From a virus (Duplodnaviria > Heunggongvirae > Uroviricota > Caudoviricetes), in IMG/VR virus record IMGVR_UViG_2880395615_000008: a stretch of 64,000 nucleotides of DNA; one strand, given 5' to 3'. This document shows positions 27,294 through 27,599 of the stretch, one piece after another (position 1 is the first letter of the stretch; each line of letters opens with the position of its first letter). The translations under genes and the position numbers were made by a program. The notes beneath the pieces are model-generated. The model was not told where the DNA came from. It made no database searches and worked only from the letters and a program-made list of their open reading frames with translations.

Positions 27294-27599
27294 ATGCACT
27301 CTAAATCAATCAATCGATATTATGTCCATGTGCAGTTATTTGAAGCAACAATGGAACAGGAGAAAAAGTTCGAGACTCTGATGCCAAATTTTAAATACTC
27401 CAGGATGATTAATGAAGGTGACATTGAATATAAATTATTGCCAGGGGCATACGTTATTCAGTCAACGCTTAATGCGAATCAAATACTTGAACAAACCTTT
27501 TCTATTGCTAATTCAGTTGGTGCTAATGCTCACATTTTTGTTTGCCCTTATGATGAAAGTGCAACCCTTTTGCCTTGTGCTGATTTTAGCACTTACTAA
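27294..27599 (+). CDS. Hypothetical protein (101 aa), low-GC, convergent to the dicA-dicF operon
   Basis: GGAGG RBS 5 nt upstream of ATG 27294; about 35% GC versus about 55% in flanks; no recognisable motif. Confidence 0.5.
   Translation: MHSKSINRYYVHVQLFEATMEQEKKFETLMPNFKYSRMINEGDIEYKLLPGAYVIQSTLNANQILEQTFSIANSVGANAHIFVCPYDESATLLPCADFSTY

Follow-up and report, generated by a model that had tools for sequence, protein, structure and literature searches.

The closest described relatives of the gene reported here differ in what they share with it. GhoS, the antitoxin of the type V GhoT/GhoS system, has Arg28 as the residue described as most important for catalysis (PMC4010927). In Escherichia coli K-12, the ymfI gene of the cryptic prophage e14 and the sieB gene of the prophage Rac are each known together with a convergent neighbor, and both ymfI-ymfJ and sieB-ydaF are listed among convergent excludons derived from RNA-seq coverage (PMC12288877). 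An SOS time course showed a strong, late rise of ymfJ and only a weak rise of ymfI (PMC11002266); ymfI is also among genes with a 'potential SOS box' (PMC6590174). The papers found to mention ymfI state no function for it and list it as function unknown. Here, we describe a ymfI-like open reading frame (ORF) in the IMG/VR record IMGVR_UViG_2880395615_000008 (Caudoviricetes), a stretch of 64,000 nucleotides (nt) referred to as the window in its whole length. We establish it as a real gene with an assigned family, a predicted GhoS-like fold, a linkage to a partner motif, and a slot shared with sieB, and we tentatively propose that it acts as an antidote-like factor in the lysogen.

The ORF comprises 101 codons, from the ATG at 27294 to the TAA at 27597-27599 of the plus strand, and its orientation is opposite to that of the surrounding minus-strand genes. 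An initial annotation, made from the letters of the window, had proposed this ORF with a GGAGG ribosome-binding site (RBS) and a 14-nt overlap with a convergent gene. The coordinates, the RBS, and the overlap were all confirmed. The gene, its partner, and the elements that join them are as follows.

27294-27599 (stop included), plus strand: ymfI-like coding sequence, predicted GhoS/Cas2-type ferredoxin fold.
27284-27288, plus strand: Shine-Dalgarno sequence GGAGG, 5 nt upstream of the ATG, read from the sequence.
27586-27599, both strands: overlap of the two convergent 3' ends, 14 nt, TTAGCACTTACTAA, the last 14 nt of each ORF.
27586-27891, minus strand: convergent early-left partner gene, 101 aa (amino acids) from MEFKDLP (Prokaryotic Genome Annotation Pipeline, PGAP, and homologues); 105 aa if counted from the ATG at 27903 (ORF 27586-27903).
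27622-27681, minus strand: codons of the motif VSEIYHETMVKALRMQIAEL, which accompanies ymfI throughout the core clade (partner alignment).

The ORF protein matched the NCBIfam model NF051477 'YmfI family phage protein' over positions 2-89 of 89 (E 4.9e-31, 107.1 bits) and the PHROGs family phrog_8894 over positions 1-93 of 94 (E 1.5e-35); in Pfam, no match was obtained. Identity to YmfI of e14 (b1143) was 55%, with 75% positives, over residues 6-96 (92 residues; E 2e-37). K-12 YmfI scores 161.5 bits with NF051477 and exceeds the equivalog cut-off of 140 bits, which the ORF does not reach. The ORF is, therefore, a family-level YmfI homologue and not an equivalog by the NCBI rule. The same shortfall accounts for the PGAP label 'hypothetical protein' (WP_000555741.1) in O157:H7 and O111:H8 genomes, several of which carry prophages 100% identical to this region. 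The prophage context agrees with the assignment: the ORF lies on the opposite strand in an early-left operon near the repressor gene and converges with a YmfJ-type gene. We conclude that the ORF is a genuine gene and a divergent member of the named, uncharacterized YmfI prophage family.

This family is small. HMMER, run exhaustively over 1.84 billion cluster representatives, returned 9 proteins, and a word-indexed search of 5.8 billion proteins returned 16 clusters with the source names Escherichia, Salmonella, and Enterobacter. A scan of one genome per species, which has little power on taxonomic range, gave only three loci (E. coli twice, Scandinavium once). The homologues were 33-94% identical, and their context was seen in Escherichia, Enterobacter, and Scandinavium records as well as in metagenome assemblies. 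Among 50,697 GenBank phage records, tblastn with the ORF protein found no match, and a DNA search matched the flanks only. The YmfI family resides in prophages, not in sequenced free phages.

The YmfI family is under purifying selection. The ratio of nonsynonymous to synonymous divergence (dN/dS) was 0.13-0.29 among e14-clade ymfI genes; between clades, dS was saturated while dN amounted to only 0.26-0.41. In the window's own clade, the ratio was 0.42-0.73, a value that rests on few changes. The gene is intact in 40 of 43 IMG/VR loci, with 19 distinct full-length proteins. Frameshifted copies (P0004, P0007, and P0008) also exist. In O22:H8 and related genomes (L002 3420-4038), an A-to-G change at window position 27588 converts the stop codon of the partner to Gln and a Ser of YmfI to Gly. 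The partner thereby grows to 126 aa, and the two genes overlap by 77 nt. With this longer overlap, PGAP annotates the minus-strand gene alone and omits the ymfI-like ORF even though it is intact, which leaves the gene under-annotated in genomes of the O22:H8 type.

Structure prediction, suggested with the initial annotation, yielded a confident model of predicted GhoS-like fold. The AlphaFold2 model was built on an alignment of seven family members (predicted local distance difference test, pLDDT, 86.7; predicted template modeling score, pTM, 0.77) and showed the order strand, helix, three strands, helix, strand. This is the beta-alpha-beta-beta-beta-alpha-beta ferredoxin topology found in GhoS and Cas2. 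In a Foldseek search of the PDB, GhoS (YjdK, 2LLZ) was the sole match with E <1e-3 (E 1.7e-4, probability 1.00, template modeling score 0.70), and Cas2 proteins came next with far lower scores. On this comparison, the predicted model has the three-dimensional fold of GhoS. The viral structure library BFVD contained no meaningful match. The protein is acidic and predicted to be a soluble alpha/beta protein, with a grand average of hydropathy (GRAVY) of -0.19. No domain had been recognized in the initial annotation; the family is recognizable through NCBIfam and K-12 YmfI, and the ferredoxin fold through the structure search.

A distant relative, P0010, bridges the two families at the sequence level. 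It matched our own YmfI profile with E 1.4e-4 in a library of 1.8e9 proteins, the NCBIfam YmfI model over its full length (E 9e-16), and the Pfam GhoS family (PF11080) at 28.8 bits against a gathering score of 21 (E 1.2e-6). The match of P0009 to Pfam GhoS was marginal (E 0.13). A direct link between YmfI and GhoS was non-significant in a family-profile hmmsearch of PDB sequences, in phmmer with P0010, and in BLASTP of P0010 against GhoS. The connection thus comes from the predicted structure and this one bridging sequence, on which basis YmfI and GhoS are probably distant homologues. No report of a YmfI-GhoS connection was found among the papers searched.

The gene for P0010 (L006 1-2108) lies outside an immunity region, as a lone plus-strand gene among minus-strand genes. 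Its neighbors are a 136-aa gene and a gene for an N6/N4 DNA methyltransferase, with a RusA gene ~2 kb farther. More than one region of phage genomes may thus hold GhoS/YmfI-like genes as cargo on the opposite strand.

The partner gene joins a variable N-terminal part to a conserved C-terminus. In the window, its residues 5-69 match phrog_6937 and phrog_1363, and residues 69-99 are 47% identical to K-12 YmfJ. The C-terminal motif has the consensus (F/L)TPxP..GVSx(I/V)YH(E/D)TMVKALR(I/M)(Q/E)(I/L)xxL, with VSxIYHxTMVKALR as the core of its helix. It stands at the C-terminus of the partner behind at least four unrelated N-terminal regions (those of the window, O22:H8, L015, L008/L009, L018, and e14 YmfJ). 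The motif is kept at the protein level: between clades, amino acids are 55-80% identical and third codon positions 30-50%. In IMG/VR, all 45 loci with the motif carry a YmfI gene, and all 43 loci with a YmfI gene have the motif; the contigs of the two sets are for the most part identical, many are e14-like, and the search patterns reach the core clade only. The two genes converge in every locus, with an overlap of 14, 42, 63, 72, or 77 nt. Within the core clade, the linkage of YmfI to the YmfJ motif is strong.

Gene and partner motif are exchanged between prophages as one piece of DNA.

27236-27753, no strand assigned: exchanged low-GC cassette (~0.5 kb) with the ymfI-like gene and the 3' half of the partner gene (homology breaks, GC profile).

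Homology to the K-12 prophage Qin extends from DicB through DicF to position 27235 and resumes at 27912 in ydfA; between these breaks, Qin carries ydfB-ydfC. Homology to PPompW resumes at 27754, within the N-terminal domain of the partner, so that the first ~46 partner codons are common and the rest are not. These breakpoints together delimit the exchanged unit at ~27236-27753. The GC content of the ORF is 35.6%, compared with 52.2% in the window and 52.5% in the left-hand spacer toward DicF; the partner gene to its right has a similarly low value (37.7%), and the low-GC island spans both genes. The low GC content attributed to the ORF in contrast to GC-rich flanks, therefore, held on the left side and failed on the right. 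The proposal of a separately acquired moron needed a similar correction: the unit is horizontally exchanged low-GC cargo opposite the early-left operon, and it is not a lone ORF, as the 3' half of the partner belongs to it. As is characteristic of morons, its composition deviates (35.6% vs. 52% GC), and it is present or absent between homologous prophages, with Qin and PPompW differing. The neighbor described as being in the 'ydfC position' does occupy that position and is not a YdfC homologue. The cassette was found in 64 of 5426 E. coli genomes, and its flanks were found in thousands.

The cassette is set in an early-left operon with the following features.

28224-28613, minus strand: prophage repressor gene, DicA/CI-type helix-turn-helix protein of 129 aa without an S24 peptidase domain (Pfam Phage_CI_repr, E 1.8e-12).
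28187-28202, both strands: bidirectional intrinsic terminator 3' of the repressor gene (terminator scan), the first plus-strand terminator downstream of the ymfI-like gene.
28130-28158, minus strand: candidate early-left promoter TTGACA-17-AACAAT, dicBp equivalent (promoter scan, 10/12 matches).
27903-28055, minus strand: DUF1391 gene (like ydfA and ydaF), the first in the early-left operon (Pfam PF07151, E 1.7e-27; 50 aa in PGAP).
26905-26956, minus strand: DicF small RNA (sRNA), beyond the slot in the early-left direction (Rfam RF00039, 75 bits, E 1e-15).
26542-26730, minus strand: dicB cell-division inhibitor gene (Pfam PF05358, E 7e-34; named dicB by PGAP).

On the minus strand, the order is repressor, terminator, promoter-like site, DUF1391, partner, the region antisense to the ORF, DicF, DicB, a DUF1482 gene, and a gene for an 814-aa exonuclease. 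DicF, named in the initial annotation, was found farther along this strand, with DicB also present. The candidate early-left promoter is suitably placed, with the terminator on one side and the DUF1391 gene on the other. The DUF1391 gene has 86% nucleotide identity to ydfA of Qin. The repressor has the architecture of DicA, yet only 26% full-length identity to it.

In Rac of K-12, the order is racR(-), ydaG(-), ydaF/DUF1391(-), sieB(+), kilS sRNA(-), kilR(-). In the window, it is repressor(-), DUF1391(-), partner(-), ymfI-like(+), DicF sRNA(-), dicB(-). The ymfI-like gene occupies the exact position of sieB in Rac and has the same reading direction; the initial annotation had placed it where exclusion genes such as sieB sit, and the synteny with Rac bears this out. 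The same architecture is seen at other YmfI loci, where the early-left operon continues with KilR, DicB, YmfH, or other small genes. The contents of the slot differ elsewhere: an unrelated 77-aa plus-strand gene in PPompW, a 69-aa gene in O157 strain 2159, a short one in phiP27, and none in Qin. Similarly, 80 IMG/VR loci with the same N-terminal domain of the partner had several other plus-strand ORFs or none. A 148-aa hydrophobic cargo protein in the slot was considered as a SieB homologue and proved not to be one. A general rule for the slot, in which each variable C-terminal domain would have a cognate convergent gene as in polymorphic toxin/immunity pairs, was also rejected. Among the 80 loci, sampled for their constant MEFKDLP N-terminal domain, the commonest C-terminal type pairs with several plus-strand ORFs or with none. 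Strict pairing is thus confined to the YmfJ C-terminus and YmfI.

Some further observations concern the surroundings of the slot. A 24-nt motif, CCGCGTGCGCTNAGCCGCATTCAC, lies at 26856-26879 (plus strand), 26 nt beyond the DicF terminator. It was present exactly once in 103 of 193 fetched loci (including L003 5355-5378, L008 4233-4256, and L004 2461-2484) and, in the located cases, just beyond the slot in the early-left direction. Prophages without DicF also have it, namely e14, where it covers the start of ymfH, and L008. The motif may mark a conserved recombination junction or act as an RNA element. In e14, ymfH (L003 5070-5381), the next gene after the ymfI slot in the early-left operon, encodes as annotated two long hydrophobic stretches; YmfH would thus resemble a small membrane protein, possibly with a kil-type function. 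Between the repressor and DUF1391 genes, close relatives have a RelE/ParE-type toxin-antitoxin pair (L002 4462-4941; L015 6186-6657), and the window has the terminator and promoter only, which makes this a second variable cargo site beside the first.

Upstream of the ymfI-like gene, two elements were distinguished.

27172-27200, plus strand: candidate weak sigma-70 promoter TTTTCA-17-TAAACT (putative; 8/12 matches in our own scan, under the threshold of the tool scan).
27207-27293, plus strand: conserved structured leader of differing plus-strand cargo genes (alignment of six loci), with hairpins at ~27208-27229 and 27235-27259.

The sequence TTTTCA-17-TAAACT is kept in the cassette variants and in Qin, and phiP27 has a better one, TTGAGA-17-GATAAT, at the aligned position. 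Homology to phiP27 begins at 27207, about where transcription would start. The predicted fold of the leader RNA has -31.3 kcal/mol (z -2.56), and a consensus fold was also computed. In phiP27 and O157 strain 2159, the same ATGGAGGATAAAATG junction stands before cargo ORFs of unrelated sequence, and of the 5426 complete E. coli genomes that were compared for the cassette, 643 contain the stretch 27236-27297. In e14-type ymfI genes, a conserved extended -10 promoter-like element, TTTTCACCAC...GGTGGTATGCT, lies ~40 nt before the ATG; the promoter-like candidate of e14 itself is the TGGTATGCT element. The terminator scan gave no plus-strand terminator before 28187.

The second leader hairpin (27235-27259) exists in two sequence versions, CCACACG...CGTGTTGG in the window, phiP27, and O157 strain 2159 vs. 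CTCCAC...GTGGAG in Qin and PPompW. In L015, the loop of this hairpin is inverted (TGACAG vs. CTGTCA). The hairpin seems to be conserved in structure but not in sequence. Qin (L004 2040-2250, minus strand of the locus) retains the promoter-like element and the leader with no plus-strand ORF after them; if active, the element would produce an RNA antisense to ydfC.

From this arrangement, we infer a promoter, a timing of expression, a target, and a biochemical activity for the ymfI-like gene. With a putative weak promoter, a leader, and an RBS of its own, the gene is probably expressed while the prophage is repressed, since it has its own translation signals and a plausible promoter opposite to the repressor-silenced operon. 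As there is no plus-strand terminator before 28187, the transcript probably continues in antisense through the partner and DUF1391 genes as well as the early-left promoter; given such read-through, the two transcription units would be mutually exclusive, as in an excludon. The predicted fold suggests GhoS-like handling of RNA, and the obligatory partner suggests a target within the early-left unit. The YmfI protein would most likely act in the manner reported for GhoS, by binding or cutting the RNA of the linked early-left transcript, or it would bind the YmfJ-type domain. By either route, leaky early-left expression (YmfJ-type protein, DicF, and DicB) would be kept harmless in the lysogen. 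Taken as a whole, the statement that YmfI is a lysogen-expressed, GhoS-like, antidote-like factor tied to the early-left operon is the one we prefer, although we place it slightly on the doubtful side of even. Its GhoS-like biochemical step would deserve less confidence than the statement as a whole. A bolder version seems improbable to us: YmfI proteins would be orphan GhoS-like RNA endonucleases or RNA binders that form with the YmfJ-type gene a prophage type V-like antidote module. In this version, YmfI made in the lysogen would destroy or neutralize the early-left transcript or product linked to it and so guard against leaky kil functions (DicF, DicB, and KilR), and convergent transcription would turn the module off at induction.

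Several results weigh against the antidote-like role. The Pfam GhoS family had no match at E up to 1 for the ORF protein, K-12 YmfI, P0005, or P0006, and profile-profile comparison (hhalign) with GhoS or with a shallow GhoS alignment was non-significant. Arg28 of GhoS aligned to Glu27 of YmfI (anchor GhoS L30-M31 = YmfI L29-M30). This alignment is weak (hhalign E 0.04) and agrees with the secondary-structure register, which makes the result provisional; it covers Arg28 alone of the five 'catalytic' residues of GhoS. Glu27 is invariant across the core YmfI clade and is replaced by His in the distant P0009 and P0010. A tblastn search of the whole window with GhoT and GhoS gave no match for either, hence no GhoT-like toxin gene, and the ORF is followed by a convergent gene, not by a co-directional one. 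The early-left genes after the slot vary (DicB, KilR, YmfH, and others), so that no single kil target is evident. The promoter candidate of the window's clade is weak (8/12) and is also present in Qin, where there is no plus-strand gene. Finally, the YmfJ motif is absent from the distant members L012, L014, and L006, and its linkage to YmfI may partly reflect common descent of one DNA module. Separately, a 63-aa hydrophobic ORF in the +1 frame (27412-27603) was considered as a hidden GhoT-like toxin and rejected: it is interrupted in the 82%-identical L015 and absent from all other clades, and this lack of conservation marks it as a by-product of T-rich codons.

The best-surviving alternative is that the gene is a lysogenic-conversion moron for superinfection exclusion or abortive infection, as SieB is, or for countering a host defense. 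It shares with sieB of Rac both slot and orientation, the hypervariable slot is occupied elsewhere by small plus-strand genes of unrelated sequence, and the low-GC cassette, the strong RBS, and a leader common to many cargo genes (643 genomes) all fit such cargo. The protein itself is less compliant. It matched no PADLOC-DB v2 model, with a chance-level Cas7b hit at E 0.055 only, and the partner protein matched none; it has no similarity to SieB and is acidic and predicted to be soluble, unlike a membrane protein. A free-standing defense gene would not be expected to be inherited so strictly together with one domain of an early-left phage protein, and the family is very small and restricted to prophages of Enterobacteriaceae. 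The initial annotation had named the ORF a candidate exclusion or anti-defense factor; nothing specific was found to point there, and the strict linkage to the early-left domain speaks at least equally for a function internal to the phage. We regard this alternative as unlikely, though still clearly ahead of the ones that follow.

A regulator of the lysis-lysogeny switch, e.g., an antirepressor under SOS control or a protein that modulates the repressor, appears quite improbable. The gene adjoins the immunity region, its K-12 homologue is listed with a 'potential SOS box' (PMC6590174), and the window repressor is without a self-cleavage domain, so that SOS induction would need an antirepressor. 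Nevertheless, an antirepressor should suit one type of repressor, and YmfI genes stand beside very different ones, short DicA-like and long S24-peptidase proteins. The SOS rise of ymfI is late, weak, and follows that of ymfJ (PMC11002266). No LexA box was noticed on reading the leader in the window, where no scan aimed at one was made, and the predicted fold is not known for antirepressors.

Slimmer still is the prospect that the antisense transcript alone matters, by transcriptional interference or RNase III pairing against the early-left operon, with the protein being incidental. The convergent overlap in every relative, the K-12 ymfI-ymfJ pair being called an excludon (PMC12288877), the missing plus-strand terminator before the early-left promoter, and the leader retained without an ORF in Qin would all be explained in this way. 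Purifying selection on the protein would not, nor would a reading frame kept through saturated synonymous divergence, a confident predicted fold, and a strong, conserved Shine-Dalgarno sequence. A chance ORF in AT-rich DNA, to which one might ascribe the missing PGAP annotation in relatives with the 77-nt overlap and the few frameshifted copies (P0004, P0007, and P0008), is excluded by the conserved homologues and the selection test, in addition to the matches to two curated profiles and the structural model.

Elsewhere in the window, a 5.9-kb block, probably a tail module, is present in two copies ~90% identical (5902-11737 and 57360-63194), and an ORF of integrase size, judged by size alone, lies at 22399-23529. 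With this duplication and this ORF, the window appears to cover two neighboring lambdoid prophages whose tail regions are related.

No earlier report was found of a GhoS-like fold for YmfI, of its strict coupling to the C-terminal domain of YmfJ, or of a slot equivalent to that of sieB. The K-12 homologue in e14 has carried the function 'unknown' for decades; a GhoS-like fold, a partner in the C-terminus of YmfJ, and a defined cargo slot give a testable lead for the whole YmfI family, including the e14 gene pair of K-12. Type V toxin-antitoxin biology rests on GhoT/GhoS alone, and a second set of GhoS relatives in another genetic setting would be useful to it. Should the bolder reading of a type V-like module prove right, YmfI would be the first relative of GhoS with a part in the choice between lysis and lysogeny of a phage, and type V logic would gain a second, independent example. 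The slot with its common promoter-leader-RBS junction (643 of 5426 E. coli genomes) is also a practical site to search for lysogen-expressed cargo in prophages of Shiga-toxin-producing E. coli (STEC).

Compared with known systems, the resemblance to the ferredoxin-fold nucleases Cas2 and VapD is much weaker than that to GhoS; there is no CRISPR or VapD context at the ORF, and no conserved catalytic Asp of the Cas2 type was identified in its protein. GhoS itself has only 14-16% sequence identity to the ORF protein. It is an RNA-cutting antitoxin and is encoded by the first gene of a two-gene operon with ghoT, whereas the ORF is prophage-borne and convergent with its neighbor. SieB of Rac shares the slot and the orientation, ahead of a kil sRNA and a kil gene; it is a protein of 162 aa with hydrophobic segments, in contrast to the predicted soluble ORF protein, and there is no similarity between them in sequence or fold. 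Excludons, convergent 3'-overlapping genes of opposite regulatory logic, resemble the layout of ymfI and its partner; the term describes regulation and not the action of a protein. YmfI of e14 is the nearest of all. The ORF protein has 5 additional N-terminal residues and is without the 19-residue C-terminal tail of the K-12 protein; the overlap is 14 nt in the window vs. 63 nt in e14, the upstream region differs and has no extended -10 element of the e14 type, and the partner has another N-terminal domain. In addition, the window has a DUF1391 gene between the partner and repressor genes and has DicF and DicB after the slot. In e14 as in the window, however, the gene lies on the opposite strand slightly beyond the repressor gene and converges and overlaps with a gene that ends in the YmfJ motif.

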